NCBI GenBank assembly: GCA_045863475.1
Contig: BTUR01000001.1
Location: 184,978-248,977 of the forward strand
DNA length: 64,000 nt
Direction: 5' to 3'
Origin: Candidatus Campbellbacteria bacterium
Lineage (GTDB): Bacteria; Patescibacteriota; Minisyncoccia; Phycocordibacterales; EsbW-18
Position numbers and translations under genes: made by a program. Shown one piece after another: positions 1 through 61,444 of this stretch. The notes under the pieces are model-generated. The model saw only the letters and a program-made list of their open reading frames with translations, searched no databases and was not told the DNA's origin. The stretch's first letter is position 1, and each line of letters begins with the position of its first letter.

Positions 1-159
1 ATGAGCACATCCGTTTTGAGATTTGCGCGGTAGTCTGCGCCACGAGCAAACCATCGTGACTGCCAATCACGCAAGATACCGAGGCGGTGTGCAAATGGAT
101 GTACTCGATGTGTCATATAGATAGATAGGGATTGGGGAACGGGGACTAGTGAACAGTGA

Positions 160-555
160 TTAGGAAGATTTCTTTGTCGTTTTCTTTGCCGGAGACTTCT
201 TCGGGGCTGCTGCCTTCGCGTCCGCCTTTTTCACCTCAGACAAAACCAGTGTGATGTTGCTTGAGTGCTTATCGAAACGTGTTGCGCGTCCCTGCGCTCG
301 GGGCAAAATGCGGTGCAGTGTCACGCCCTTGTCGACGCGAACTTCAGCAACCTTAAGCGTCTGTGCCTCCGTCATCCCCTTCTGCTTGGCGTTTGCAAGC
401 GCGCTCTGGAGTGTTTTTTCAAACTGAACCGTCGCTCGTTTCGGCGTTGCGCGCAAAAGCTGGAGTGCCTGCGGGACGCTCTTGCCGCGGATGAGGTTCG
501 CAACGAGGCGGACTTTACGCGGAGATTGCCGGTAGTTTTTGAGGTACACGCGCAT
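160..555 (-). CDS. rplV: 50S ribosomal protein L22, with a Lys/Ala-rich C-terminal tail
   Basis: The translation MRVYLKNYRQSPRKVRLVANLIRGKSV... matches the L22 family; it sits downstream of S19 as in the S10 operon. Confidence 0.9.
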   Translation of the reverse strand: MRVYLKNYRQSPRKVRLVANLIRGKSVPQALQLLRATPKRATVQFEKTLQSALANAKQKGMTEAQTLKVAEVRVDKGVTLHRILPRAQGRATRFDKHSSNITLVLSEVKKADAKAAAPKKSPAKKTTKKSS

Positions 556-557
556 AC

Positions 558-902
558 TTATTTCTTAGCTGCATCTGACGCTGCCGCCTTGGCTGCGTGT
601 GCTGCTGCAATTTCTGCCTCTTTCTTGGCGGTGTCGAGCGCCTTTTGCATCTGACCTCCGTGCTTGCGGAACGTCTTGCTCGGAGAAAACTCGCCGAGGC
701 GGTGTCCCACCATCTCTTCAGTTACGAACACGTCGATAAACGTCTTGCCGTTATGCACCGCAAAGGTGTAGCCGACCATTTCAGGGGTGATAACTGAGGC
801 ACGAGCCCACGTGCGGATAGCCGGTCCTCCCGGCTTCTGCTTGCCCACCTTCGCCATGAGTTTGACGTTGAGATATGGTCCTTTTTTGAGCGATCGTGTC
901 AT
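558..902 (-). CDS. rpsS: 30S ribosomal protein S19, with an Ala/Lys-rich C-terminal extension
   Basis: [12 protein letters not shown]...[18 protein letters not shown] is the canonical S19 core. Confidence 0.9.
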
Positions 903-928
903 GTGACTGATTTTTAACGAGTATAGCG

Positions 929-1060
929 AGTATAAAAATCGTTACCCCGCCCTCTCTAGTTCCCTGCTATAACTGGCATAAACCTAATACCCTATCGCTC
1001 TCTACTTTGGCACGAAACAGGGATATCGTGCTTGAGAGGGCGGGGTTCTCGAAAAATACA
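929..1060. repeat. MITE-like element, copy 1, with terminal inverted repeats CCCCGCCCTCT ... AGAGGGCGGGG
   Basis: CCCCGCCCTCT lies at 945-955 and its reverse complement AGAGGGCGGGG at 1035-1045. Both ends are flanked by TAT(A/T)4TCG-like extended inverted repeats. The same architecture occurs at 3022-3150, 20470-20600 and 22030-22125. Confidence 0.6.
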
Positions 1061-1226
1061 GTCGTCAGAAACTCCTTATTTTTCGGAAAAAAATCGGCCC
1101 CTTGGCCTCGGGGCATAATACCAGAAGCGTCTTACGTGGTCAAATATATAGCTGACACAGAGGCTTCGCCTCTCAGTGCACTGAGAGGCGAAGCCTCCTG
1201 AAATCCACACATAATGCACAGGGGTA

Positions 1227-1535
1227 TTGCAAAGCATGAAGAAAGTATGTAGAATCAGCTGTGGAGTGAATGTTTTCCACCCGGACGCATCCTTCCGGCA
1301 AACACGCCGGCAGGTTCTCGCTGAGGGAGAAGTATCGATGGAAGACGCAGATGTCGGCAGAAAGGTCTGTTGCGTCAAGCGCGACGGCGACAAGGTCCAG
1401 GGCACGGTCTGCAAGTGCACGAGGAGAGGCATCGGCGTGAAGACGCCGCACCGCTTCTACCCGTCCGAGCAGTTCTCGGAGTTCTTCCGGGCCCTCGAGT
1501 ACCTCACGCCGCGACTGGCGCCGGCCGAGCTGTAA
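1227..1535 (+). CDS. hypothetical Cys-containing small protein (ORFan) inserted between rplB and rpsS
   Basis: 102-aa ORF on the opposite strand to the ribosomal genes; high GC; followed by a terminator hairpin. The frame is uncertain because alternative overlapping ORFs exist. Confidence 0.3.
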   Translation: MQSMKKVCRISCGVNVFHPDASFRQTRRQVLAEGEVSMEDADVGRKVCCVKRDGDKVQGTVCKCTRRGIGVKTPHRFYPSEQFSEFFRALEYLTPRLAPAEL

Positions 1536-1593
1536 CCAGGCAGCACCAATGGAACGGGTTTGAGCCCTCGCACGGCTCGAATCCACCAAGAAA

Positions 1594-1663
1594 GGCAGGT
1601 CCCTCGCAAGACCTGCCTTTTTTCTTTACAAAAAACCGCCCCGGCAGAGAGCCGGGGCGGTTT
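1594..1663. terminator. pair of convergent rho-independent terminators
   Basis: GGCAGGTCCCTCGCAAGACCTGCC followed by a T-tract on the + strand, and CCGCCCCGGCAGAGAGCCGGGGCGG with an A-tract (a T-tract on the - strand) immediately downstream of rplB. Confidence 0.6.
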
Positions 1664-1674
1664 AGCATTATCTG

Positions 1675-2523
1675 TTAGACCTTCCGCTTCTTGCCAACGC
1701 GACGGCGTTCGACAATGAGGAAGTTTGAATATTTCTTCGGACGGCGCGTCTTGTGTCCCTTGCCGACGTTCTTTCCGTGGCGGGTGCGAGCTCTGCGGTG
1801 ACCGCGTCCCTGGCGTCCTTCACCACCTCCGTGCGGGTGGTCAACCGGGTTCATCGCGGTGCCGCGGACCTTCGGCTTCTTTCCGAGCCAGCGCTTGCGG
1901 CCGGCCTTGCCGAGGTTCACGAGCTTGTTCTCAGGATTGGAAACTTCGCCGATGGAACCCCATGCTTTCTCAGAAACCTTTCGGATTTCCGTTGACGGCA
2001 TCTTCAGGAGCGTGTAGCCGCCGTCATGCGCGACCACTTCCGCGTAGTTGCCTGCTGAGCGGGCGATTTTTGCGCCGCCGTCGGGCTTCACTTCAATGTT
2101 GTAGACGAATGTACCGACAGGAATCTTTGCGAGCGGGAGCCGGTTGCCGGGAATGAGCGGTGCTTTTTCTGATGCGAGGAACGTGCCACCGACTTTCATG
2201 GACTGCGGTGCAAGGATGTAGCGGCGCGAGCCGTCTGCAAACACGAGCAGCGCGATGAAGCCGGTGCGGTTCGGGTCGTACTCAACTGATTCAACGCGCG
2301 CCGGAATATCTTTCTTCGTGTACGCAAAATCAATGTCTCGGAAACGGCGCTTGTGTCCGCCGCCGCGAGAGAGCGTCGTGAGGCGGCCGAATGAGTTGCG
2401 GCCCGTTGCCCGCTTAAATCCGCCGGTGAGCGGCTTGTGCGGGCGGCTGTGCGTAATGTGCTTCCGGAATTCAATGCCGGTCATGCCGCGACGTCCTTTG
2501 GTTGTAGGTTTGTATTTCTTCAT
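1675..2523 (-). CDS. rplB: 50S ribosomal protein L2
   Basis: MKKYKPTTKGRRGMTG... with GGGHKRR and HPHGGGEG motifs. The start is taken at the internal Met so that it does not overlap rplW. Confidence 0.9.
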   Translation of the reverse strand: MKKYKPTTKGRRGMTGIEFRKHITHSRPHKPLTGGFKRATGRNSFGRLTTLSRGGGHKRRFRDIDFAYTKKDIPARVESVEYDPNRTGFIALLVFADGSRRYILAPQSMKVGGTFLASEKAPLIPGNRLPLAKIPVGTFVYNIEVKPDGGAKIARSAGNYAEVVAHDGGYTLLKMPSTEIRKVSEKAWGSIGEVSNPENKLVNLGKAGRKRWLGKKPKVRGTAMNPVDHPHGGGEGRQGRGHRRARTRHGKNVGKGHKTRRPKKYSNFLIVERRRVGKKRKV

Positions 2524-2533
2524 GGCTGTAGTG

Positions 2534-2992
2534 TTACACGAGCTCGATGGTGTCTCCCTTCTTGAGCTGTACGTATGCCTTCTTGCCACCGCCGGTTTCA
2601 ATCGGCGTGCCGCGGCGCGACGTCTTCGTTTTCTTCGGAACGTTCACAACGCGAACACGAACCGGTGTGACACCGTAGACGTCTTTGACTGCCGATGCGA
2701 TGAGCTTCTTGTTTGCCGATGTCGCAACATCAAATGCGTAGACGTTGTGCGCCGAGAGCAGCGTTCCCTTCTCGGTAACGCGCGGGTTGCGCAGGATGTT
2801 CGGGTTCACGCGTCCGGCGGCAACCGTCTGCTTGAGGCTCTTCTTCTCCTCTGCGCGTGACGCACCCTTCGCAACCGGAAGCTCCTTTGCCTCTTCCTCT
2901 TTCACCTCCTGGACTTCCTTTGTCGCACGCTTCGCAAACAGCGAGGTCTTCGCTTTTGCACCGCTTGAGTTGTCTTTTTTACGAAACAGCAT
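2534..2992 (-). CDS. rplW: 50S ribosomal protein L23, with a roughly 60-aa Lys/Ala/Glu-rich N-terminal extension
   Basis: L23 core ILRNPRVTEKGTLLSAHNVYAFDV...KKAYVQLKKGDTIE; lies between L4 and L2. Confidence 0.8.
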   Translation of the reverse strand: MLFRKKDNSSGAKAKTSLFAKRATKEVQEVKEEEAKELPVAKGASRAEEKKSLKQTVAAGRVNPNILRNPRVTEKGTLLSAHNVYAFDVATSANKKLIASAVKDVYGVTPVRVRVVNVPKKTKTSRRGTPIETGGGKKAYVQLKKGDTIELV

Positions 2993-3021
2993 ATGTCTGA
3001 TTTTATTAGCGAGCGTTAGCG

Positions 3022-3150
3022 AGATTTATAAAATCGGCACCCCGCCCTCTACCCACAAAGACACCTGGAAGTTCAGTCTGAATATTCATGTTTTTTTGTA
3101 TCTGTGATTTTGTCATGGTGTTAGAGGGCGGGGTCTTCGAAAATATACTC
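3022..3150. repeat. MITE-like CCCCGCCCTCT terminal-inverted-repeat element, copy 2
   Basis: CCCCGCCCTCT at 3040-3050 and AGAGGGCGGGG at 3123-3133; flanks match copy 1. Confidence 0.6.
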
Positions 3151-3167
3151 ACTTCGTTCGTTATTTT

Positions 3168-3947
3168 CTAAGAGTTCAATTTTGATTCAAACGCTTTCAG
3201 TGACGCATCCGGGTCGACAATCACAACGTACGTGTATGAGAGCGCGGAAAGCGCATTGAGGTTGCGCGCCTCTTCAACTCCGGTTGTCGCGATATTGCGG
3301 AAGCTTTTCTTTACTGCCTCGCTGTTTGAAGGCATCACGAACAGCGCAGCGTTGCCTGATTTGCGCGCAAGCTTCTCAAAGCCTGAAATCTTTGCGAGAT
3401 TTGTGAGCGCAGTTTTCGCCTCGGCGGTTTTCGGAGCGTTCATGGGAAGCGTATCAACAAACAGCACCTCGCCGTCTGAAAGTTTCTTTGAAAGCACTGA
3501 GAACAACGCCTTCGCGCGCATCTTCTTCGGGATGCGAACACCGTACTCCTTCGAAGCAATCGGGCCGTGCGTTACACCACCGCCGCGCCATATCGGCGAG
3601 CGAATAGAACCGTGTCGGGCGCGTCCCGTTCCCTTCTGGCGCCACGGCTTCTTACCACCACCACGAACTTCGCCGCGTCCTTTCGTGTGTGCACGGCCGC
3701 GTCCTGCGCGTGCATTGTTTTGCATGCCGGATACCACCTGGTGCACCAAGTCCGCATTCCAAGAAACACCGAAGATGCCTGCCGGGAGTGTTACCGTACC
3801 TGACTCTTTTCCTGCGACTGTGAAGATGGGGGCTGAGAGACCGTCCGCTGATTTCTTCACCGCGACCTTCTTTTCAGCCTTCGGTGCAGCCGCCTTCTTC
3901 GGCGCTGCCTTCTTCACTGTTTTCTTTTGTGCGACTTTCTTTTCCAT
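3168..3947 (-). CDS. rplD: 50S ribosomal protein L4, with a Lys/Ala-rich N-terminus
   Basis: GRGRAHTKGRGEVRGGGKKPWRQKGTGRARHGSIRSPIWRGGGVTHGP is an L4 signature. The start is taken at MEKKVAQKK, just after the rplC stop. Confidence 0.85.
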   Translation of the reverse strand: MEKKVAQKKTVKKAAPKKAAAPKAEKKVAVKKSADGLSAPIFTVAGKESGTVTLPAGIFGVSWNADLVHQVVSGMQNNARAGRGRAHTKGRGEVRGGGKKPWRQKGTGRARHGSIRSPIWRGGGVTHGPIASKEYGVRIPKKMRAKALFSVLSKKLSDGEVLFVDTLPMNAPKTAEAKTALTNLAKISGFEKLARKSGNAALFVMPSNSEAVKKSFRNIATTGVEEARNLNALSALSYTYVVIVDPDASLKAFESKLNS

Positions 3948-6545: not shown

Positions 6546-6568
6546 CAGGGCGGAAGCCATCTCTATAC

Positions 6569-6628
6569 CGCCGTCTTTCGGGACGGCGGTTTTTCCATAT
6601 GAAAACCCGCCCTTTCGGGTGGGTTTTG
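6569..6628. terminator. tandem/bidirectional rho-independent terminators
   Basis: CCGCCGTCTTTCGGGACGGCGG followed by TTTTT, and AACCCGCCCTTTCGGGTGGGTT followed by a T-run; these serve the + strand ORF and the downstream end of rpsJ. Confidence 0.6.
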
Positions 6629-6786
6629 TTACATCATCCGCGCACCGAAAATCTCATCTTCCGGTTTCATCTCATTTTGAGGAATGTACGGTCACCGACT
6701 CCTCAGTGATATTTTGAGTACGCTGATTTTGGTACGGGATTGATGAAAAATAAAGTCACCCGACCTTGCGGCCGGGCTCCTTATTT

Positions 6787-10895: not shown

Positions 10896-10977
10896 GACGC
10901 CCTCCCTTTCTGAAAATCCTGCGGTTATTATCTTCTGCCACCATACGTCAAACCGCCCGCACTGTACAGTGCGGGCG

Positions 10978-11010
10978 GTTTCTGTTCCCTGTCGTCTGTT
11001 CCCTGTTCCC
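10978..11010. repeat. GGGAACAGGGAAC motif cluster (reverse complement on + strand) directly 3' of a TAG stop
   Basis: TGTTCCCTG at 10983-10991 and GTTCCCTGTTCCC at 10998-11010. In gene orientation the stop reads TAG AGCCAGGGAACAGGGAACAG. Confidence 0.5.
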
Positions 11011-11015
11011 TGGCT

Positions 11016-11711
11016 CTAGTCGTGCTTCATCTCGTTGCCCAAGTGCTCGAGGTAGCGAGCAGCTGCACTTTGTCCTCCCAAACCAAATGAGAGACCGAAT
11101 GCAAGTGCAAGTGCGATGACAACACCTGTGAAGAGCGTCTGCAAGAATGCAACGCCGATACCGAGGTGTGAGAGCGCAACCAAGAGTGCGAAGACCAAGA
11201 TTGACCAGCGTGAGAGTGCACCGAGGAAACCTGCCATCTTGATGTGCGTTGCCTTCGCCGATGCGATGACGAGCTTGCGGACTGCCTCTGCAATCACCAC
11301 CGCAACCAGCATGATGAGCACTGCGACGATGACCTGCGGCAAGTAGCCCAAGACCACGTTGCTCAAGAAGTCGGTCACCTGTGTGAGGTTGACGATTTCA
11401 AGTGCGGCAATCAAGAAGACTACGATAATGAACCAGCGAACGAGCTCGCCGATGAATTTGCCTGAGTTAAGCGAGAAACCGGCGCGTGCGAGCGTCTGTT
11501 CCATGCCTGCGCCCCGAAGCGCCGAGTCGAGCTTCATCGTCTTGAGAACCTGGTCCACAGCACGTGCCAAAAGCGACGCGATGATCCAGCCGACGATGAA
11601 CACGATGAGGGCAACGATGAATTTCGGCAAAAACGCGATAACTCCCGCCCATACAGACGCGAGTGATCCCGCTACCGTCATACCCGTTGTTCCAAGAATT
11701 GTTCCTTGCAT
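11016..11711 (-). CDS. polytopic membrane protein with repeated 'conserved TM helix'-like segments (MscS-associated type)
   Basis: 231 aa with about 5 TM helices; repeated motifs KFIVALIVFIVGWIIASLLARAVD and KFIGELVRWFIIVVFLIAALEIV. Confidence 0.5.
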   Translation of the reverse strand: MQGTILGTTGMTVAGSLASVWAGVIAFLPKFIVALIVFIVGWIIASLLARAVDQVLKTMKLDSALRGAGMEQTLARAGFSLNSGKFIGELVRWFIIVVFLIAALEIVNLTQVTDFLSNVVLGYLPQVIVAVLIMLVAVVIAEAVRKLVIASAKATHIKMAGFLGALSRWSILVFALLVALSHLGIGVAFLQTLFTGVVIALALAFGLSFGLGGQSAAARYLEHLGNEMKHD

Positions 11712-15579: not shown

Positions 15580-15674
15580 ATGTGTAGTTAATTAGTTTAT
15601 TAGTTGGTTAGTTGGTTAGTTGTGCTTGCCTAATAAACTAAAGCGAAGCGTGACCAACAAACTAACAACTGCCG

Positions 15675-16175: not shown

Positions 16176-16376
16176 AGTTCTTTTTGTTTTTAAAACAAAA
16201 AATGACCGCACGGGCCACTCTAAAAGAGTTGTCGACCTCTACAGGACCTCTGCCTCTTGTGTATGTGAGACTGCCTGTGTTCTCTGGCCGTGCCCAAACA
16301 AGATACAAAAAAGAGCGCAAAAAAGCAAGAAGCCGAGTCCCGATGTGTCGGGACTCGGCTTCTTTTGTATCTTTTT

Positions 16377-16392
16377 CTGTTCCCTGTTCCCT
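16377..16392. repeat. GGGAACAGGGAAC motif (reverse complement) directly after a TAG stop
   Basis: CTGTTCCCTGTTCCCT; in gene orientation the stop reads TAG TTAGGGAACAGGGAACAG. Confidence 0.5.
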
Positions 16393-16394
16393 AA

Positions 16395-18881
16395 CTAGAT
16401 TTCCCGGATATCCGGATCGTCGGTTTCGCTCGGGTCAAGGGCGCTTTCACAACCCGGGTCGGGGAGCGTCTGACCGCCACCGTCATAGTCGATGACTCCA
16501 TCGCCATCATCATCAAGTCCGTTGTTACACTGTGTCACCGTCGTTGCCTGGTTGAGCTCGTCGTCATCTTGGGGACTTGAACAGCCGGGGTCATTCATGT
16601 CGATCAACTCGTCCTCAGGGTCGTCGTTGTCGATGTTGTCAGAACACTGTGTCGCGTTTGCCTCATCGTCATCATCCGCGGACTGACAACCGGGATCATT
16701 CGGGTAGTCCGTTTGTTTGTCGCCGTCGTTGTCTTCTCCGTCGGAACACTGCGGCGGACGTAAATCAACAATGACTGAGTCGGAAACCGTGCCAGACGCA
16801 CCACCAATACCTTCGCCACCACTTGGTACATCACACGTAATAATAAACGTTATCGGACCTGTAATGGTCGGCGACCATTCCGCACCATCGTCATCTTTAG
16901 GATTGCCGTTCCACGACGCTACACCTTTATTATTGCTCGTACCGACACAGGTGCCGGGTTCGATGTCAGATGACGTCCAGGTGAGATACGCCATCGGGTT
17001 TGCTTCCGAAACGTACACCGGACCGTCATCGCCGTTTGCTTTTATATCAACATCTGCCCCCGGAGCTGGCGGGTCTTGCGTGTACTCCAGCACAAAGACA
17101 ACTGTATCTCCCGCCTCGAGATACTGAGAATCTACCGGAGTTATGTCGGTAAGCGTGTAACCGTTTTTCGTGTCCGCTGGGTCAATAATGTACGTACCGA
17201 CCGGCATGGGCTCATAAATTTTTTCAGTTTGGTTCGAGAGTTCGTTGTTGTATCCGCCCGGAGGCCCGGAGAGTATCCACGTCGTCGCAAATGGATTACC
17301 GAGGTTATCGAACGATCTGACAATGACCGTACCCGTCGTCGGTGAAGGAGGATTGACTGTCACCGTACATGCTGTTCCTGTCATACCGTCTGACGAAACA
17401 GTAACTGTCTTCGTCCCTGAGGTTGTGTAAGAAACGAAAAACGCCCCGCCCGTATCAGATGACGGGGTACCACCCGTCGCGCTCCATGAATACGTTCCAT
17501 TGCCGCCGCGTGCAGTAAGCCCCGCCTGTTCGCCAATATCAACGGTCTGCCCTGCCGGCAAACACTCAGGTGTCACCTTCACTGTTGTTGTCGCACCAGC
17601 CGACCCACCGGATGTGTTGCCACAGTTCACCGCAAACACCGTGTTGTTGTGAAGCGGTGCGGTTGGACCAGCAGTACCTGACGGTTGCGTGCCGGTGAAA
17701 AACCCAACCGTCTGACCTTCAGGGTTTGCATAACAATATGTCGCATTCGTTGAACCCCATGTGATGGTTGTGCCCTGTCCGTAGGTAACTGGTGAAGGAG
17801 ATGCGGAGATTGTCGCGGTGACTGATGCGCCGGTGTTAAACGTCGCGGTCACCGAGCGGTTTTGTGTCATCGAAACAACACAAGAGCCTGTGCCGGAGCA
17901 CGCACCGCTCCATCCGGTAAATGTCGAACCTGTCGCAGGAGTTGCAGTTAGTGTTACTGATGTACCTGATGAATATCCTTGTGAGCAGTCGCTCCCACAC
18001 GAAATTCCCGCAGGAGCTGACGTCACCGTACCGCTCCCTGTTCCTGCTTTGGCGACAGTAAGCGTGAAGGAGGAGGCGGAAACCGTCACGGTATCCGTAC
18101 ACGTTCGTGTCACTGTGCCGTTGGTATTGTTGCGCCACTGCACACGCCCTTTTGCCGTGTAGGTTCCGTTTGAAGAGTACGGGGCGTTTGTCCAAGAGTT
18201 TGAGCCACTGCTAATCCATGCGGTCGTTGCGTCGTACGAGCCATTGTTTGTGTAATCAATTTCGTATTTGCGATTTGTTCCTGTTGAGCAATTTTGTGCG
18301 TTTTGTGTTGAAAGCGCGAAGGTGAAACTGCTGCCGGCGGGACCTGAAGACGGCGTGACGGCAAGATTACATGAGAATGAACATGGGTTGGGGCGGTTGA
18401 TGGTAAATGTTGTCGTTTTTTGATCTTGATTTTCAGGCGGATAACCGTAGAGACTCGTTGTGCGAACGATGAGTGTGTATGTGCCATTGGCAAGCGATGA
18501 AACGTTTATCGAACCGTTATACTCAAACGGAGGATTGGGAATCCCTTCGTAATCCCTCCACATCGTGGGCCCTACAAGTGATGTTCCTTGCACTAAAGCC
18601 CAGGTTTGTCCCTGAGTAACGATGTGCCCGTTTCCCTCAACACCTTCACACCTTCCTCCCGGAAGCCAGTCTGCACTGACGATGGTAAGAGTATTTTGAG
18701 CGGCATCGAGAGAAACTGTCCCCGTGTTATACGTATGAGGACCAAAACCATAATCACCCGGCACAGGGTTACAAAGTGCAAGTGCCGTTGACGGAGAAGA
18801 CAACGCTCCGAAGAGAACCAGCGCACTAAAGAGCACTGTTACCGAAAATGCAGAACGTGTAAAAGAGGTGGGGCGTTGCAT
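16395..18881 (-). CDS. giant secreted Thr/Ser/Gly-rich surface protein with an InlB-B-like repeat and C-terminal Cys/Asp-rich putative Ca2+/metal-binding repeats
   Basis: Signal peptide MQRPTSF...ALA. GSGTVTSAPAGISCGSDCSQGYSSGTSVTLTATPATGSTFTGWSGAC resembles the bacterial InlB B-repeat domain. Four C-terminal repeats of CxDGxDNDGDxxxDYxxDPGC. Confidence 0.65.
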   Translation of the reverse strand: MQRPTSFTRSAFSVTVLFSALVLFGALSSPSTALALCNPVPGDYGFGPHTYNTGTVSLDAAQNTLTIVSADWLPGGRCEGVEGNGHIVTQGQTWALVQGTSLVGPTMWRDYEGIPNPPFEYNGSINVSSLANGTYTLIVRTTSLYGYPPENQDQKTTTFTINRPNPCSFSCNLAVTPSSGPAGSSFTFALSTQNAQNCSTGTNRKYEIDYTNNGSYDATTAWISSGSNSWTNAPYSSNGTYTAKGRVQWRNNTNGTVTRTCTDTVTVSASSFTLTVAKAGTGSGTVTSAPAGISCGSDCSQGYSSGTSVTLTATPATGSTFTGWSGACSGTGSCVVSMTQNRSVTATFNTGASVTATISASPSPVTYGQGTTITWGSTNATYCYANPEGQTVGFFTGTQPSGTAGPTAPLHNNTVFAVNCGNTSGGSAGATTTVKVTPECLPAGQTVDIGEQAGLTARGGNGTYSWSATGGTPSSDTGGAFFVSYTTSGTKTVTVSSDGMTGTACTVTVNPPSPTTGTVIVRSFDNLGNPFATTWILSGPPGGYNNELSNQTEKIYEPMPVGTYIIDPADTKNGYTLTDITPVDSQYLEAGDTVVFVLEYTQDPPAPGADVDIKANGDDGPVYVSEANPMAYLTWTSSDIEPGTCVGTSNNKGVASWNGNPKDDDGAEWSPTITGPITFIITCDVPSGGEGIGGASGTVSDSVIVDLRPPQCSDGEDNDGDKQTDYPNDPGCQSADDDDEANATQCSDNIDNDDPEDELIDMNDPGCSSPQDDDELNQATTVTQCNNGLDDDGDGVIDYDGGGQTLPDPGCESALDPSETDDPDIREI

Positions 18882-19022
18882 GTATAGAAAGTATTTAGGA
18901 GTAATAGTTACGTGATTAAATGATAGCACGCAAAAAACGTAACAAAACGAATGTGTGGAAAAAGATACACCCCGCTCGGAGATGAAGTCCGAAACGGGGC
19001 GTGGTGCCATGCGGTGCGCGTA

Positions 19023-37073: not shown

Positions 37074-37100
37074 CCCCTCACACGAGGGGTTTTATTTTTT
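37074..37100. terminator. bidirectional rho-independent terminator
   Basis: CCCCTCACACGAGGGG with an A-run on one side and a T-run on the other; serves the ncRNA on + and the Xer gene on -. Confidence 0.6.
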
Positions 37101-38000
37101 CCCGTGAAAGTTTTTATGCACGTCGCGCAGGTGTTTGTCGGTGACGTGCGTGTAAATCTGCGTCGTCGTGATGTTCGCGTGACCTAAGAGCGCCTGCACC
37201 GAACGCAGATCCGCGCCGTTTTCCAGCAAGTCGGTGGCAAACGAGTGACGCACGACGTGCGGTGTTACTTTTTTTGAAATACCCGCTTTCACGGCGTACC
37301 GTTTCACGAGGCGTTCGACAGAACGTGCAGATAACCGCAAATCTGAACGGCTTTTTGAGGACGGCCCCGCCTGTACAAACATCGCATCATCAAGATCGGC
37401 ACGCTTTGCAAGATAACTTTCAACCGCGGCGCGTGCGGTGGGGGAGACAAACACGACACGCACCTTATCTCCCTTGCCACGAATGGAGAATTCTCCGCGC
37501 GAAAGATCAATATCGCGCGGCAACGACACGAGTTCAGAAACGCGCATGCCGGTGGAGAACAAGAGTGCAAGAATCGCGCGGTCGCGCAGGGCAGTCAGTG
37601 AGTCGCCCTCGGGTGCACGCATGAGACGTGCAAGTTCTGAGGACGTAATGAGATCCAAATCGCGGTCACCGACTTTCGCAAGTTCAATCGCCTCCGGCTG
37701 AAGACTCTCTACGCCGCGTTTGCGCAAAAATTTCAGAAATGCGCGCAGTGCGATGAGATAGTAGTTCTGCGTTTTCTTCTTCAGCGTCTCGCCGCTTTTT
37801 CCTCCGGCATCCTGACGGTTCAGCCACAGGCGGAACTCACGCACCACCGTCTCAGTGATGTCCTTCGGTTTCGAGACTTTGGAGAAGGTGATGAAGCGGG
37901 AGAGGTACCGGTCGTAATTTTCAACCGTCTTCAGCGAGCGGCCGCGCTCGATTTCAAGATACTCGAGGAATTCGCGCTTGAGTGTTTCAACATCTTTCAT
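37092..38000 (-). CDS. xerC: tyrosine recombinase, XerC/XerD family
   Basis: N-terminal SAM-like domain (LEYLEIERGRSLKTVENYDRYL) and the catalytic region ...HVVRHSFATDLLENGADLRSVQALLGHANITTTQIYTHV with R...HxxR...Y. Confidence 0.85.
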   Translation of the reverse strand: MKDVETLKREFLEYLEIERGRSLKTVENYDRYLSRFITFSKVSKPKDITETVVREFRLWLNRQDAGGKSGETLKKKTQNYYLIALRAFLKFLRKRGVESLQPEAIELAKVGDRDLDLITSSELARLMRAPEGDSLTALRDRAILALLFSTGMRVSELVSLPRDIDLSRGEFSIRGKGDKVRVVFVSPTARAAVESYLAKRADLDDAMFVQAGPSSKSRSDLRLSARSVERLVKRYAVKAGISKKVTPHVVRHSFATDLLENGADLRSVQALLGHANITTTQIYTHVTDKHLRDVHKNFHGKK

Positions 38001-50188: not shown

Positions 50189-52114
50189 ATGTCACACCTC
50201 GACGGTCTTAATCCGGCACAAAAAAGAGCAGTGGAGCATATGAGCGGTCCGCTTTTGATTATCGCCGGCGCCGGAACGGGTAAAACGCGCGTCATCACAC
50301 ATCGCATCCTCAATCTCATCAACGCAGGTGTCCTGCCGGAGAAAATTCTTGCCATCACATTCACCAATAAAGCCGCCGGCGAGATGCGCGAGCGCGTTTT
50401 TAAACTCCTGCCGCCGGGAAGTCCCGCGCCGTTCATCGGCACGTTTCATGCGCTTGGCGTGAAAATCCTCCGGGAAAATCACCGTCTCCTCAACATTCCG
50501 AAGTTTTTCTCGATTTTCGACCGCGACGATTCAATTTCTACGATTAAGCGCATACTCCGCGACCTCGGACTAGACCCAAAACAGCATTCGCCCTCCGCGT
50601 TCCTCTCCGTTATTTCAAAAAATAAAAACGAAGCGCGTCCGCTCTCTGAATTCCGTGAGAAAGCGAACACGCTGTTTGAACGCATGACGGTTCCCGTGTG
50701 GGAGCGGTACAGCGAAGCACTCGCTCAGGAAAAAGCATTCGACTTTGACGATCTTTTACTTGCAACACTCTCGCTTTTCAAAAAGTATCCCGACATTTTG
50801 CGGGAGTATCAAAACCGCTGGTCGCACATCCACGTTGATGAGTACCAAGACACGAACACCGTGCAGTACGAACTCACACAACTCCTCTCCGGTGCGCACA
50901 AAAATATCTGCGTGGTCGGTGACCACGATCAGTGCATCTACACATGGCGCTCAGCCGACATGCGCAACCTCTCACGCTTTGAAGAAGATTTCCGTGACGT
51001 CACGGTTGTGACACTCGAAGAAAATTACCGCTCAACACAAACCATCCTCACCGCCGCAAACCGCGCCATTTCGCAAAACGAAATGCGCAAAGAAAAAAAT
51101 CTGTTCACCAGCGGGTCGGAAGGGGAGAAAATTGAGCTGTACACCGCCGCATCTGAGACCGATGAAGCACAATGGGTGGCGTCACGCGCACAGGAACTCA
51201 TTGACGCAGGTGTTCCGGAAAATGAAATTGCCGTGTTGTTCCGCGCAAACTTCCAATCACGCGCGCTTGAAGAGGCGTTTCTCAACGCGCGTGTTTCGTA
51301 TCAAGTGCTCGGCACACGGTTCTTTGAACGCCGTGAAGTAAAAGACGTGCTCTCATACATCGTCGCGGCGCTTAATCCCGACAACACAACCGCACTAGCA
51401 CGCATCATCAATGTCCCTGCGCGCGGCATCGGAAAAACAACACTTCTCAAAATATTTTCCGGGCAAGAGCACCTGCTCCCCCCAAAAATGAAAGAGAAAG
51501 TGACCGCATTTCGAACTCTTCTGTCGCGCATCGCCGACTTCTCGCACGCACACAAGCCGTCTGATGTCGTGAAATTCGTCGTGAAAGAAAGCGGTATCGA
51601 GCACGAACTCGCACACGGCACCGACGACGAACACGAGCGCCTTGGCAACATCCGTGAATTGGCAACGCTTGCCGTGCGCTACGACGCACTGCCCGCAGAC
51701 GAAGGCCTGCATACGTTTTTGGAAACCGCACTCCTAGCCGGTGACCAGGATTCACTGAAAAACGACGAGGCCTCGGTAAAACTTATGACCATTCACGCGG
51801 CAAAAGGTTTAGAGTTTGCGCACGTGTTTATTACGGGACTTGAAGAAGGATTGTTCCCCGATGAGCGCAGTACTCTGCGCGAAACACCGGAAGAGCGCGA
51901 GGAAGAGCGCCGGCTCTTCTATGTCGCGCTCACCCGCGCAAAGAAACAAGCACACCTCTCGCACGCCCTCATGCGCACCATCTTCGGTACGCCATCAATG
52001 AACGTTCCGTCGCAATTCATCACCGAACTCGACGCCGAGCTTGTGCGCGACGTTACGCCGCAGGATTCGTGGCGACCCGGAAGCGGAAAGGGGCTGCTTG
52101 ATATTGAGTTTTAG
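50189..52114 (+). CDS. pcrA: ATP-dependent DNA helicase, UvrD/PcrA family
   Basis: LNPAQKRAVEHMSGPLLIIAGAGTGKTRVITHRI, DEYQDTN, ...ATLAVRYDAL...MTIHAAKGLEF... are superfamily 1 helicase motifs. Confidence 0.85.
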   Translation: MSHLDGLNPAQKRAVEHMSGPLLIIAGAGTGKTRVITHRILNLINAGVLPEKILAITFTNKAAGEMRERVFKLLPPGSPAPFIGTFHALGVKILRENHRLLNIPKFFSIFDRDDSISTIKRILRDLGLDPKQHSPSAFLSVISKNKNEARPLSEFREKANTLFERMTVPVWERYSEALAQEKAFDFDDLLLATLSLFKKYPDILREYQNRWSHIHVDEYQDTNTVQYELTQLLSGAHKNICVVGDHDQCIYTWRSADMRNLSRFEEDFRDVTVVTLEENYRSTQTILTAANRAISQNEMRKEKNLFTSGSEGEKIELYTAASETDEAQWVASRAQELIDAGVPENEIAVLFRANFQSRALEEAFLNARVSYQVLGTRFFERREVKDVLSYIVAALNPDNTTALARIINVPARGIGKTTLLKIFSGQEHLLPPKMKEKVTAFRTLLSRIADFSHAHKPSDVVKFVVKESGIEHELAHGTDDEHERLGNIRELATLAVRYDALPADEGLHTFLETALLAGDQDSLKNDEASVKLMTIHAAKGLEFAHVFITGLEEGLFPDERSTLRETPEEREEERRLFYVALTRAKKQAHLSHALMRTIFGTPSMNVPSQFITELDAELVRDVTPQDSWRPGSGKGLLDIEF

Positions 52115-52200
52115 GGAACAGGGAACAGATGACGGGGAACAGGAGCGAGAAAGGAAACCTGCTATCATATTCCTAATCACCGTTCCCCGTTCCCCGTACC
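52114..52200. repeat. GGGAACAGGGAAC motif in inverted-repeat configuration between pcrA and rsmA
   Basis: TAG|GGAACAGGGAACAGATGACGGGGAACAGG at 52114-52143, and CCGTTCCCCGTTCCCCG (reverse complement) at 52181-52197. Confidence 0.5.
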
Positions 52201-52208
52201 CTACTCTC

Positions 52209-59098: not shown

Positions 59099-59734
59099 AT
59101 GATGAACCCGGAAATACAACAATTGATAAACAAACAGGTTGGGGCTATGCCACCGAAGGTGCGCGAGGCGTTTTTGCACATTGATGCATCAAAATATATC
59201 GGCACCTTGGCCAAGAAACACGACCTTCGCACGGATCAGGCCGGTGTCCTCGAAAACGAGATAATGATTATTATGCTGGGCCTCGAAAACCCACGCACAT
59301 TCATGAATAACCTGACACAGAAGGGAAATATTTCTCGGGATACCGCAGCCGCTATCGTAGAAGATATCAACCGGGATGTGTTCGATAAAATTCGTCACGA
59401 CCTTGCAACTTTTCTTGAACAGAGTGAAAAACAGTATGGCCCTGGAGAGCCGGAAAAAACAGATTCGCCCGCTCCTGCTGTTATTATGCCCCAGCCGCAA
59501 ACAGCCCCTACAACACCTGTCGCACCTGTTATCACCCCCGCGGCACCGACATCTCCAACAGCACCAGCGCAGGGAAGTGGTGCGCGCACACTCAACACCG
59601 ACTTTGCAAAAGAGAGAATGGAGCGTCAGTTCCGCATGCCGACTGAAACGAAACAGGTGACCGAAAAGCCGGTTTCCGGGGAAGAGGGGAAAAAGTACCC
59701 GGGCGTTGATCCGTACCGCGAACCGACGAAGTAG
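59099..59734 (+). CDS. hypothetical protein with a Pro/Thr-rich linker
   Basis: 211 aa; the stop TAG is followed by TTGGGAACAGGGAACGGTCAT. Confidence 0.4.
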   Translation: MMNPEIQQLINKQVGAMPPKVREAFLHIDASKYIGTLAKKHDLRTDQAGVLENEIMIIMLGLENPRTFMNNLTQKGNISRDTAAAIVEDINRDVFDKIRHDLATFLEQSEKQYGPGEPEKTDSPAPAVIMPQPQTAPTTPVAPVITPAAPTSPTAPAQGSGARTLNTDFAKERMERQFRMPTETKQVTEKPVSGEEGKKYPGVDPYREPTK

Positions 59735-59759
59735 TTGGGAACAGGGAACGGTCATGAAT

Positions 59760-59878: not shown

Positions 59879-60292
59879 ATGAAATTTGAAGTACCGCAGT
59901 TTATCGACGTCGAAGACAAGGTGTTCGGACCGTTCACCTTTAAGCAGTTCGTGTACCTCGCCGGAGGAGCGGGTCTTTCAGTTGTCATCTGGCTTTTTGT
60001 GCCGCGCTTCATCGGCATTTTTCTCATTGCCGCGGTTCTGGGGCTCGCCGTTGCGCTCGCATTCTACAAGGTAAATGAGAAACCGTTCGTGAATTTCCTG
60101 GAATCCATGCTGCGCTTCTTCGTTTCAAAAAAACTCTACATCTGGAAGAAGGAGGCTCGAAAAGTCGAACACAAAACGGCGGCGGAGGCACAGGTAGAGG
60201 GCGTCGTCGTGCCGCGCCTGTCTGACAGCAAGCTTCGTGACCTGGCCTGGAGCCTTGATGTGCACGATTCACTGTACGACGAACAAAAGTAG
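59879..60292 (+). CDS. PrgI/VirB3-like small membrane protein (type IV secretion)
   Basis: MKFEVPQFIDVEDKVFGPFTFKQFVYLAGGAGLSVVIWLF has the VPxxxxxxDKxxGxxTxxQxxYL N-terminus and two TM helices typical of Gram-positive VirB3-like proteins. Confidence 0.45.
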   Translation: MKFEVPQFIDVEDKVFGPFTFKQFVYLAGGAGLSVVIWLFVPRFIGIFLIAAVLGLAVALAFYKVNEKPFVNFLESMLRFFVSKKLYIWKKEARKVEHKTAAEAQVEGVVVPRLSDSKLRDLAWSLDVHDSLYDEQK

Positions 60293-60309
60293 GGAACAGG
60301 GAACGGTCA

Positions 60310-60714
60310 TCAGGGGACAGGAGGAAAGGACTTGCGGCAATACCTAATGATGCCGTTAAGGAGTTTGAGGGTTTTTATCACCCTTTCACAAAGCAGGAAA
60401 AAAGCATCGTCTTGTAAATACCCGACGTCACGGGCCAGGAGAAGCTGGTTTTGCACCTCAACCAAAGAACCTCGTGCAACAAGGTAGAATCGGAGTTTCT
60501 CTTTATGAGACACCCTTCCGTGTGCTTCGGCCACATTAGAGGTCACTGAAACTGCCGCCCGCCGTATTTGGTTTGTTAATCCGAATATTTCATCCCCGGG
60601 AAATTCTTTTGTGCAAAGGTAAATTGCCTTTGCAAGGCCGTGTCCCTCCTTCCAAACCTGTAAATCGGTAAAATCTAGAGCCTTACTCATACCGCCACGG
60701 TACACAAACTGCAT
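60310..60714 (-). CDS. four-helix-bundle protein (the family found in 23S rRNA intervening sequences), bracketed by inverted repeats
   Basis: LDFTDLQVWKEGHGLAKAIYLCTKEFPGDEIFGLTNQIRRAAVSVTSNVAEAHGR...LRFYLVARGSLVEVQNQLLLARDVGYL. Flanked by GGGAACAGGGAACGGTCAT (60292-60310) and its imperfect inverse GTTCACCGTTCCCGGTTCCCAGTTCCC (60737-60763). Confidence 0.7.
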   Translation of the reverse strand: MQFVYRGGMSKALDFTDLQVWKEGHGLAKAIYLCTKEFPGDEIFGLTNQIRRAAVSVTSNVAEAHGRVSHKEKLRFYLVARGSLVEVQNQLLLARDVGYLQDDAFFLLCERVIKTLKLLNGIIRYCRKSFPPVP

Positions 60715-60766
60715 AAAGCCCTCCTAAACCGTTCTGTTCACCGTTCCCGGTTCCCAGTTCCCTAAT

Positions 60767-61444
60767 ATGCGTTACAATGTAACGCATATGGCGCAACAAA
60801 AAGCGCAGAGCGCGCAGGTATTCGTTCCCATCAAAGAGATCCGCAGCGGTGTCGTCATCCTCAAGGACGGTTCCATGCGATCCGTGCTCCTCTGTAGCTC
60901 GCTGAACTTCGCTCTGAAGTCCGAAGATGAGCAGTCGGCAATCATCATGCAGTTTCAGAACCTCCTCAACTCGGTGGAGTTTCCCATACAGATATTCATT
61001 CAGTCACGCGAGCTGGACATCCGTCCGTACATCGCGCTTTTAGAAAACCAGATAAAAGTGCAGGAGATTAATCTCATCAAAATGCAGACGCGCGAGTATA
61101 TCGAGTTCATCAAAGGGTTCATGGAGAACGTCAATATCATGTCCAAGAGTTTCTTCGTTGTTGTCCCGTATTCTCCGGCGGTTATCTCTGCAGCGAAGGG
61201 AGGTGTGAAGGGCGCACTTGGTGGCATCCTCTCGGGCAAAAAAGAAAACCCTGAGCAGAAAATCATCGCGTTTGAGGAACACCGCAGTCAGCTCGAACAA
61301 CGCATCGCGGTTGTATCACAGAATCTTGCACGCACCGGCATTCGCGCAGTCCAGCTGCAGACGGAGGAACTCGTTGAACTGTACTACAAACTGTTCAACC
61401 CGGGCGACTCCGAAAAACCGATTGCACTCTCCGCAGTTAAATAA
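60767..61444 (+). CDS. VirB4-like protein, N-terminal domain ORF
   Basis: QVFVPIKEIRSGVVILKDGSMRSVL matches the N-terminus of Gram-positive VirB4/TrsE/PrgJ ATPases. It ends at TAA, 3 nt before the ATG of the ATPase ORF. Confidence 0.5.
   Translation: MRYNVTHMAQQKAQSAQVFVPIKEIRSGVVILKDGSMRSVLLCSSLNFALKSEDEQSAIIMQFQNLLNSVEFPIQIFIQSRELDIRPYIALLENQIKVQEINLIKMQTREYIEFIKGFMENVNIMSKSFFVVVPYSPAVISAAKGGVKGALGGILSGKKENPEQKIIAFEEHRSQLEQRIAVVSQNLARTGIRAVQLQTEELVELYYKLFNPGDSEKPIALSAVK

Follow-up and report, generated by a model that had tools for sequence, protein, structure and literature searches.

Tandem GGGAACN heptamers are dispersed along a 64-kb stretch of the genome of a Candidatus Campbellbacteria bacterium (positions 184,978 to 248,977 of contig BTUR01000001.1; referred to below as the window). 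On balance, these arrays are best read as the terminal inverted repeats of a cassette of the intervening sequence (IVS) type that carries a gene for the IVP (S23p) protein of the Pfam family PF05635, accompanied by dispersed doublets that lack an open reading frame (ORF) and by solo copies, all of them behaving similarly to repetitive extragenic palindromic (REP) elements. The cassette has the form of a G-rich heptamer array, followed by the IVP/S23p gene and an inverted, C-rich array, and this organization holds generally across the PF05635 family. Individual arrays are discrete elements of ∼15 to 35 nt, dispersed and placed at gene boundaries, where they fill stop-to-start spacers exactly, and their presence varies from one relative to another. 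The dispersed heptamer is the very unit that brackets an IVP gene in two unrelated lineages, this Campbellbacterium and Xanthomonas.

A Pfam scan of ∼70 ORFs of the window identified ribosomal proteins, EF-Tu, NusA, RNase Y, PNPase, PcrA, KsgA, a PrgI/TraC-like/VirB4-like cluster, and one PF05635 member, with no second IVP copy anywhere in the window. The only relative of this IVP protein in the PDB is 2GSC (E value of 1.3e-16), which is the XCC0516 protein of Xanthomonas campestris. The IVP gene is found between the genes for the PrgI-like and TraC-like proteins, not in helix 25 or 45 of 23S rRNA, and is enclosed by convergent arrays, one of them upstream in the IVP sense and G-rich, the other downstream and C-rich (Table 1). 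In both the minimum free energy and the centroid folds of the IVP transcript, these arrays pair with each other and close the ORF. The window contains one more convergent inverted pair, which is located in the spacer between pcrA and ksgA and encloses no ORF; the other arrays are solo. Both inverted partnerships proposed in the original prediction were thereby borne out, the one at 52114-52148/52174-52201 as a hairpin and the one at 60292-60326/60728-60762 as a pair enclosing the IVP gene. The ORF-less doublet and the IVP cassette of the window are bounded by TA at either end, whereas the Xanthomonas cassette is not.

The same architecture is widespread among IVP genes from metagenomes. A set of 80 IVP homologs (40 to 56% identity, save for two short or marginal matches at 61% and 39%) was taken with flanks from metagenome contigs and reduced to 57 nonredundant loci by removal of near-duplicates; a flanking inverted repeat was counted at a score of at least 14, and simple ORF calls from the same loci, taken all together, size-matched, or limited to those with noncoding flanks, served as control genes. 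Inverted repeats flank the IVP gene in 35 of the 57 loci (61%), compared to 2 to 3% of the control ORFs (Mann-Whitney p of ∼1e-13 to 1e-18). The arms of these repeats are nearly all tandem heptamers and include more than 20 different units, such as TAGCGGN, TAGGTCT, GAGTGGT, GAGACAA, TAGGGGT, GTTGTCG, TAGCCAT, TAGCTNC, CGTAGTT, GAATTAT, and GAGATTT. A period of 7 or 14 characterizes 101 of the 113 IVP-flank arrays, and the density of period-7 arrays is 3.4 per kb in the IVP flanks versus 0.27 per kb elsewhere. Their polarity is constant (31% G and 12% C in the upstream arrays; 29% C and 13% G in the downstream ones), with a median copy number of 4.2 to 4.4, and the unit flanking the IVP gene is shared by other arrays of the same locus in 21.6% of the cases, versus 3.4% in cross-locus controls. 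The trinucleotide TAG was considered as a universal core of the flanking units and rejected: it is present in 22 of the 82 units and is no more common than ATT, GAT, or TGA.

An additional example comes from a scan of other genomes for (GGGAACN)3, which returned at least 120 loci (L003 to L122). Among the matches listed, such arrays are common in cyanobacteria (Nostocales, Okeania, and Coleofasciculus), Acidobacteriaceae, Gemmatimonadota, Phycisphaerae, and Rhodanobacter/Dyella, and some of them reach at least 19 matches or 59 units. The unrelated 6.7-kb contig L118 carries three IVP genes, each of them within inverted arrays of its own, composed of ATTTAGG, the hexamer AAGGTT, and GAAATTA, respectively. 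The same contig encodes a protein similar to NAD-dependent epimerases (693-1817, minus strand), whose ORF contains two in-frame inverted GGGAAC/GGGATT doublets, translated as SGNREQGIGNR...SLIPGPS and SGNREQGTGNR...SLIPDPS.

In X. campestris pv. campestris, 186 dispersed GGGAATC arrays, with 70 convergent pairs, have been described and their function left open (Rehm 2015, PMC4692102). One of these, listed in row 15 of the supplement to that work, is the array GGGAATCGGGAGTGGAGAATCGGGAATC, which lies 6 nt past bccP and extends over the annotated start of XCC0516 (PMC4692102), the gene for the IVP protein in PDB entry 2GSC. Examination of the IVP locus in X. campestris, X. citri, and Dyella placed the gene between accB and accC, with a GGGAATC-type upstream array that begins 6 nt past the accB stop codon and a second, inverted array, GGGAATAGGGAGTCGAGAATGGGGAAT, that ends exactly at the ATG of accC and was missed by the search criterion of Rehm 2015. 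In the predicted fold of the X. campestris IVP transcript, the two arrays close the ORF as four 6-bp helices split by the variable seventh base (z of -8.9). The accB and accC genes normally form one operon; the cassette lies between them at ∼2920-3440 of the Xanthomonas and Dyella loci (L210, L212, and L214), a site conserved across genera of Xanthomonadales. A third case is the 23S rRNA IVS of Coxiella, in which tandem GACAGAT heptamers, whose copy number varies among strains, are found ahead of the S23p ORF (Warrier 2016, PMC4990558); this IVS has a 28-bp terminal stem and is cleaved by RNase III at the first repeat (PMC4990558). S23p from X. campestris forms a homopentameric toroid (PMC4990558).

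The original prediction had described the repeat as a dispersed 13-nt motif. Every site listed there is present, and the exact motif, GGGAACAGGGAAC, occurs 5 times in the window, compared to 0.00 expected from 100 dinucleotide shuffles; with up to 2 mismatches allowed, there are 14 matches versus 1.55 expected, including those at 52182-52201(-) and 60736-60762(-). Its recurrence is therefore real, but the real repeated unit is the tandem heptamer GGGAACN rather than a 13-mer: the 7-nt phase runs on through degenerate units (e.g., GGGAACA GGGAACA GACGACA GGGAACA GAAACCG, read from 11010 to 10976). The 8 arrays of the window consist of 2 to 5 units each, of the GGGAACN or GTGANNN type, with a period of 7 in the Tandem Repeats Finder output. 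A ninth array, in the C-rich orientation, fills the rpsH-rplF spacer in L129, the left extension of the window on the same contig; the covered part of the source genome amounts to ∼74 kb in total. The arrays fall into two subfamilies that share ∼30 nt, ...GGGAACA GGGAACA GAYGRCN GGGAACA GRA and ...GGGAACG GTSAnnA, and can therefore be regarded as copies of an element, not as independent microsatellites. The lag-7 periodicity of the intergenic DNA as a whole is barely raised (0.267 versus ∼0.259), so that the arrays are discrete elements and not a pervasive property of intergenic DNA. A search of the window against Rfam at the gathering threshold returned only 5 tRNAs, with no match at the arrays and no rRNA, and a literature search for the exact motif retrieved only unrelated primer matches. 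One locus (L001) is identical to the window, and another (L002) differs from it by 1 base (99.975% identity) with no gaps; the arrays are the same in both, which makes the pair uninformative on copy-number variation between strains.

Table 1. Heptamer arrays, the IVP gene, and adjacent hairpins in the window
Feature	Position	Strand	Sequence units or assignment	Context
Exact motif GGGAACAGGGAAC	10998-11010(-), 16379-16391(-), 52114-52126(+), 59737-59749(+), 60292-60304(+)			
Array	129-163	+	GGGATTG GGGAACG GGGACTA GTGAACA GTGATTA	Fills the spacer between rplV (160-555, -) and rpsC; C-rich strand in mRNA; complement of the rplV TAA stop inside the last unit
Terminator hairpin	10950-10978	-	CCGCCCGCACTGTACAGTGCGGGCGG followed by TTT	Separate intrinsic terminator directly past the array of the MscS-like gene; -28.6 kcal/mol, z -5.1
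Array	10976-11010	-	GGGAACA GGGAACA GACGACA GGGAACA GAAACCG	5 nt past TAG of the MscS-like gene (Pfam MS_channel_1st_1; 11016-11711, -)
Terminator hairpin	∼16327-16364	-		Separate strong terminator past the array of the surface protein gene; -34 kcal/mol, z -8.4
Array	16371-16391	-	GGGAACA GGGAACA GAAAAAG	3 nt past TAG of the gene for the 871-aa surface protein (16395-19010, -)
Array, left arm of the ORF-less doublet	52114-52148	+	GGGAACA GGGAACA GATGACG GGGAACA GGAGCGA	Overlaps the TAG of pcrA (52112-52114)
Array, right arm of the ORF-less doublet	52174-52201	-	GGGTACG GGGAACG GGGAACG GTGATTA	Ends 7 nt before the ATG of ksgA (52209); C-rich strand in ksgA mRNA
Solo array	59737-59757	+	GGGAACA GGGAACG GTCATGA	2 nt past TAG of gene 59099-59734
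Array, 3'-side terminal repeat of the IVP cassette	60292-60326	+	GGGAACA GGGAACG GTCATCA GGGGACA GGAGGAA	Overlaps the TAG of the PrgI-like gene (60290-60292) and, on the other strand, the stop and final codons of the IVP gene
IVP gene	60310-60714	-	23S_rRNA_IVP (S23p), Pfam PF05635, E value of 6.3e-33	Four-helix bundle, Avd-like
Array, 5'-side terminal repeat of the IVP cassette	60728-60762	-	GGGAACT GGGAACC GGGAACG GTGAACA GAACGGT	G-rich in the IVP sense strand; on the antisense strand, upstream of the TraC-like gene

A tetramer repeat, (ATAG)3, is found at 117-128, between the array at 129-163 and the start codon of rpsC.

All 8 arrays of the window are intergenic, and each of them begins or ends no more than 7 nt from a stop or start codon, whereas random placement in the intergenic DNA puts, on average, 0.82 of the 8 arrays that close to a boundary (with a maximum of 5), and none of 20,000 simulations reached 8. 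Within the window, the bias toward gene ends was thus correctly anticipated. The original prediction also had five sites following a TAG stop within 0 to 3 nt, in the sense of the terminated gene. Five arrays indeed have their G-rich strand in the sense orientation of the upstream gene, and all of them are behind TAG stops, at distances of -1, -1, 2, 3, and 5 nt, but only four of these fall within 3 nt. The other three arrays, 129-163(+), 52174-52201(-), and 60728-60762(-), are located just upstream of the starts of rpsC, ksgA, and the TraC-like gene, with the C-rich strand in the mRNA. When read on the G-rich strand, 13 of the 16 arrays from the window, L129, and its relative L123 start as TA|GGG; arrays in the opposite orientation directly follow TAA stops, as TAA|TC(A/C)C, or precede ATG starts. 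Of the (GGGAACN)3 arrays listed for other genomes, 31 of 138 have TA ahead of the first GGGAAC, compared to ∼9 expected. The association with TAG is therefore real in the window but secondary, reflecting the outer terminus of the arrays and the filling of stop-to-start spacers rather than signaling specific to a stop codon. The proposal that the array itself creates the TAG stop is not necessarily true: in the relative L125, pcrA also ends in TAG and there is no GGGAAC array.

Comparison with relatives revealed a turnover of the arrays. In L128, whose ribosomal operon is 95 to 98.5% identical to that of the source genome at the nucleotide level, the arrays are missing: the rplV-rpsC spacer is 6 nt long versus 43 nt in the source genome, and the rpsH-rplF spacer is 5 nt versus 39 nt made up by the array. 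Given that this close relative lacks arrays in both spacers, they must have been gained or lost recently. In L123, with 52% G+C and a PcrA protein that is 81 to 83% identical, GGGAACN arrays occupy the orthologous sites past pcrA, before ksgA, past the PrgI gene, and 5' of the IVP gene. In addition, an in-frame inverted doublet (IGNREQTAGNRKDPSSVPGFPF) is found in the variable loop of its PcrA, and another array is found in the variable loop of its PNPase (pnp); the latter replaces a loop of equal length with no net insertion and was rejected as an example of insertion. The more distant L124, L125, and L127 (44 to 48% G+C) contain no GGGAAC; these spacers, and even the PcrA loop, hold other heptamers instead: GTGAATN/GAGTCAC in L125; TTTGATA, TAGAAGG, and AGCTACC in L127; TAGTGTG and TAGCATG in L124. 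In L127, 15 of the 18 period-7 arrays are confined to the intergenic 13% of the locus. The IVP gene is likewise bracketed by the genome's own unit, GGGAACN in L123 and AAATATC/GATATTT in L127, and the same holds for L125. The unit flanking the IVP gene of L127 (in the form AATATCA/TGATATT) is also a common dispersed unit in that locus, with 5 further period-7 arrays in the TTTGATA/TGATATT family. The heptamer arrays in the PcrA loop, which follows MRERV..LL, have their own unit in each genome (L123, 10231-10296; L125, 4173-4197; L127, 10278-10301); PcrA of the window has a short loop there, with a possible remnant, CCGGGAAGTCCCGCGCCGTTC, at ∼50410-50430.

The ribosomal-protein operons of L129 and L128 also differ in sequences other than the heptamer arrays. 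A second repeated element of ∼70 nt, found in L129 at 2624-2697 and 6558-6630 and consisting of TTAGTTACGCTACGCTTCAGTT..TTAGGAACTAA followed by AAACTAAC-like repeats, fills the rpsQ-rplN and rpsN-rpsH spacers; it is absent from L128, where these spacers are 4 nt long or the genes overlap. Between rplE and rpsN, the segment 3838-6332 of L129 contains two additional ORFs, of 196 and 346 aa, whose promoter-like and terminator-like flanks are repeated; at this position, L128 has only a 273-nt spacer.

An unlikely explanation, albeit the one that fares best among the alternatives, is that the arrays are ordinary simple-sequence repeats (SSRs) generated by replication slippage in tolerant noncoding DNA, with IVP merely found among them or using them and no cognate relation between the two. 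Heptamers are an overrepresented class of long SSRs in many bacteria (Rehm 2015 citing Mrazek, PMC4692102), their copy number varies among Coxiella strains (PMC4990558), and the units follow the genomic G+C content among the relatives (GGGAAC at 52%, TTTGATA at 45%). However, slippage acting independently at 8 or more unlinked sites would not arrive at one unit and at shared ∼30-nt subfamilies, nor would it yield inverted pairs at 61% of the IVP genes versus 2 to 3% of the controls, and it leaves unexplained the constant polarity, G-rich upstream and C-rich downstream, as well as the presence of whole arrays in place of the 5- to 6-nt spacers of a 95 to 98% identical relative. The change of the unit while the positions persist suggests a concerted change through a trans-acting determinant or a replacement of the element, which also argues against independent slippage.

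Placement within 7 nt of stops or starts could also be expected if the arrays were cis-acting RNA elements, G-rich in 3' untranslated regions and C-rich in 5' untranslated regions, bound by a global single-strand RNA-binding protein (of the Csp, S1, KH, or CsrA-like type) that, without involvement of IVP, tunes translation, coupling, or mRNA stability. A role of this kind has been proposed for TAACTGA heptamers located just upstream of start codons (MacGregor 2015, PMC4679880), and rpsC, ksgA, and rplF, which follow C-rich arrays, have no obvious Shine-Dalgarno sequences. Nevertheless, we consider this explanation still less probable than slippage: the close relative L128 manages without the arrays in the same essential operon, arrays are also found in frame within ORFs, both orientations occur, and the units change between relatives faster than a conserved global regulator would allow.

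The original prediction offered three explanations for the repeat, a REP-like element, a binding site for a global factor, and a lineage-specific 3'-end signal independent of a classic hairpin, and the last of these was not supported. The five arrays behind TAG stops in the sense orientation fit a hairpin-independent terminator, and in X. axonopodis pv. citri, transcripts start or stop at repeats capable of G-quadruplex (G4) formation more often than at control repeats (Rehm 2015, PMC4692102). The arrays themselves form no intrinsic (Rho-independent) terminators: the solo ones fold no better than shuffled sequences (z of +0.4, +0.9, and -0.6), and both terminators that were recognized, past the MscS-like and surface protein genes, are separate sequences downstream. 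Thus, 2 of the 5 post-stop arrays have canonical terminators of their own behind them, and these two arrays are themselves unpaired, with the hairpin directly past 10976-11010 being no part of the repeat. Other arrays are located inside operons (rplV-rpsC, rpsH-rplF, pcrA-ksgA, and, in Xanthomonas, accB-accC), and 3 of the 8 are in the opposite orientation, ahead of starts, which makes a terminator function very unlikely. The arms of the pcrA-ksgA doublet do pair, forming one long hairpin (-38.9 kcal/mol, z of -3.0), as do those of its ortholog in L123 (-40.1, z of -4.9).

A role as regulatory repeats that form G4 structures, proposed for GGGAATC and GGGGAYT, is highly improbable here: the unit is of the same type, and repeats of at least 4 units form G4 in vitro (Rehm 2015, PMC4692102), yet the window, L123, and L129 are all devoid of canonical (G3+N1-7)x4 motifs, which contradicts an intramolecular three-tetrad G4; the arrays have only 2 to 3 G3 tracts each, broken by degenerate units, and the AT-rich heptamers of the relatives cannot form G4. 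Motifs of this kind resemble the Neisseria DNA uptake sequences in terminators, and uptake sequences with lineage "dialects" in a competent bacterium of the candidate phyla radiation (CPR) could be lineage specific, biased to extragenic DNA, and arranged in inverted pairs; this is the least credible of the alternatives, as it calls for a single 10- to 12-mer instead of tandem heptamers, the density is low (∼1 per 8 kb), and the specific link to the IVP gene is left unexplained. Each of these alternatives fails on the bracketing of IVP genes, the shared subfamily structure, or the turnover.

Several points weigh against the arrays being terminal repeats of an IVS-type cassette and its derivatives. 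To our knowledge, IVP has no known catalytic activity, and the scan of ∼70 ORFs of the window yielded no gene for a transposase, reverse transcriptase, or Y1/RAYT protein; any binding of the arrays by IVP, and any cutting by RNase III at sites other than rRNA, are hypothetical. No clear flanking inverted repeat was detected in 39% of the IVP loci, and the unit flanking the IVP gene in L125 (nnAGAAT/GGTAT) only loosely resembles the other arrays of that genome (GTGAATn). Comparison of the empty and filled sites in L128 and L129 revealed no unambiguous target-site duplication; the sites are compatible with a TA duplication, which is, however, not clean. Finally, among the 120 listed (GGGAACN)3 loci, a tblastn search and a hidden Markov model built in this work found IVP genes solely in L118. 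Such a lack of reciprocal enrichment is to be expected if the arrays far outnumber the IVP genes, yet it provides no positive support.

If the arrays indeed belong to such cassettes, their spread would take place at the DNA level, in a manner similar to REP/REPIN elements or miniature inverted-repeat transposable elements, and they might persist by landing between stop and start codons, where their outer ends (TAG... or TAA...) would keep the stop intact. Doublets of the pcrA-ksgA type could represent ORF-less cassettes, because the G-rich array is at the stop and the C-rich array at the start, just as in accB-IVP-accC, and the solo arrays could be half-copies. The RNA of paired arrays is expected to fold into a stem in which 6-bp helices alternate with the variable seventh base. 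By analogy with the rRNA IVS, this stem may be cut by RNase III, with the IVP message excised or polycistronic mRNAs cleaved or insulated at the doublets. The pentameric IVP, whose function we infer, would be the sequence-specific partner of its own heptamer array of ∼4 to 5 units. Such recognition would explain why the unit sequences differ between lineages while the positions of the arrays persist.

Among the closest known kinds of repeats are the G-rich heptameric SSRs, GGGAATC in Xanthomonas and GGGGA(C/T)T in Nostoc, the latter of the short tandemly repeated repetitive (STRR) type, which have a near-identical tandem unit, GGGAAYN, in 2 to 26 copies (Rehm 2015, PMC4692102). Similarly to the arrays described here, ∼90% of them are intergenic, convergent pairs are frequent, and the positions are common to related species, with length and sequence varying (PMC4692102). 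In contrast to those SSRs, with their preference for at least 4 units and intramolecular G4 capacity, the arrays of the window have 2 to 3 G tracts each and no G4 motif, and their host is a small-genome CPR bacterium; no link between the repeats and XCC0516 was drawn in that study (PMC4692102). The 23S rRNA IVS of Coxiella, Leptospira, and Brucella likewise contains a PF05635 ORF within stem-forming terminal inverted repeats and upstream tandem heptamers, and it is regarded as a selfish element whose stem is cut by RNase III (PMC4990558). Unlike the rRNA IVS, the cassettes of the window and of Xanthomonas are located between protein-coding genes, and copies of their unit are found dispersed in ORF-less doublets and solo arrays as well. 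The TAACTGA repeats of Beggiatoaceae, Cyanobacteria, and Bacteroidetes are also intergenic tandem heptamers, with 2 to 6 copies a few nucleotides from start codons and a patchy phyletic distribution; they differ in having an AT-rich unit with built-in stop codons, have been interpreted as sites for a translational regulator, and have no reported link to IVP (MacGregor 2015, PMC4679880).

Among the explanations put forward in the original prediction, a REP-like element comes closest. REP/REPIN elements and the RAYT transposases, reportedly described by Nunvar in 2010 and by Bertels and Rainey in 2011, share with the present system short extragenic repeats near stop codons, inverted doublets, an associated gene flanked by an inverted pair, and lineage-specific sequences. 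The dispersed, extragenic, gene-end location, the inverted doublets, the gain or loss of copies, and the bracketed gene all agree with that comparison; the palindrome, the GTAG head, and the Y1 transposase do not. Unlike REPs, which are imperfect palindromes of 20 to 40 nt with a conserved GTAG head, the arrays are direct heptamer repeats, and GTAG is found in only a few of them; unlike RAYT, a Y1/HUH transposase, the flanked gene encodes a PF05635 four-helix bundle with no known catalytic mechanism of mobilization. The motif also comes close to being a fragment of a single terminal repeat of an insertion sequence, which had been named as the outcome that would speak against a dispersed signal: it is the unit of the terminal repeats of IVS-type cassettes, but it is dispersed as ORF-less and solo copies as well. 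The Rickettsia palindromic elements, said to have been reported by Ogata et al. in 2000, are similar in that palindromic doublets are found in frame within protein genes (the PcrA loop of L123 and, twice, the epimerase of L118), but they are ∼100 to 150 nt long, are not built of heptamers, and have no known associated gene.

Accordingly, both components belong to known kinds, the heptamer repeats of the STRR/GGGAATC type and the IVS/S23p element. What is new is the presence of such arrays in a CPR genome, including the spacers of ribosomal-protein operons, and the existence of an IVS-type cassette that is not located in rRNA and whose ORF-less and solo derivatives are dispersed. The association of PF05635 genes with heptamer arrays as a general rule appears to be new, too: in the searchable literature, subscription-only papers being outside its scope, no earlier mention was found beyond the single observation in Coxiella, and a prior description may exist in the literature that was not covered.

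Cyanobacteria have been known to contain tandemly repeated heptanucleotides since about 1990. Homologs of Avd, a protein of diversity-generating retroelements, the members of the IVP/S23p family are found widely across cyanobacteria, Bacteroidetes, Xanthomonadales, and CPR; structures have been solved for the family, and we know of no function for it. We tentatively suggest, as a possibility well short of probable, that IVP/S23p pentamers are the missing partners of dispersed heptanucleotide repeats, such as cyanobacterial STRRs, the Xanthomonas GGGAATC repeats, and GGGAACN, with each variant recognizing its own array. The gene with its inverted arrays would then be an autonomous IVS-like cassette, and the doublets and solo arrays would be nonautonomous copies or binding sites, making up a REP-RAYT-like system that is based on a nontransposase fold and operates through RNA stems processed by RNase III. 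The function and origin of the repeats and the function of IVP are decades-old questions, and the window has tied a type of repeat to a protein family in a way that is simple, has strong statistics behind it, and can be checked; if this link is true genome-wide, both problems become directly testable. It would also mean that repeats of a selfish or regulatory kind are expanding even in streamlined CPR genomes, including in essential ribosomal-protein operons and in protein loops.

Several other features of the window deserve mention. The only gene of the recombinase type found in it (37092-38000, minus strand) encodes a Xer-type tyrosine recombinase with the Phage_integrase and SAM-like N domains; no array adjoins it. 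An octamer tandem repeat, TAGTTGAT, is present in 4.8 copies at 15585-15622, in a spacer adjoining the rplJ region, and differs in period from the heptamer arrays. At 60765-60789, next to the IVP cassette, there is a 25-nt palindrome, ATATGCGTTACAATGTAACGCATAT, symmetric save for the central base, which overlaps the likely start of the TraC-like gene (ATG at 60788). This palindrome is identical in L123 (20579-20603) and L125 (14812-14836) despite the divergence of the surrounding spacers and is probably an operator or a start-codon-sequestering hairpin of the cluster, which resembles type IV secretion systems.

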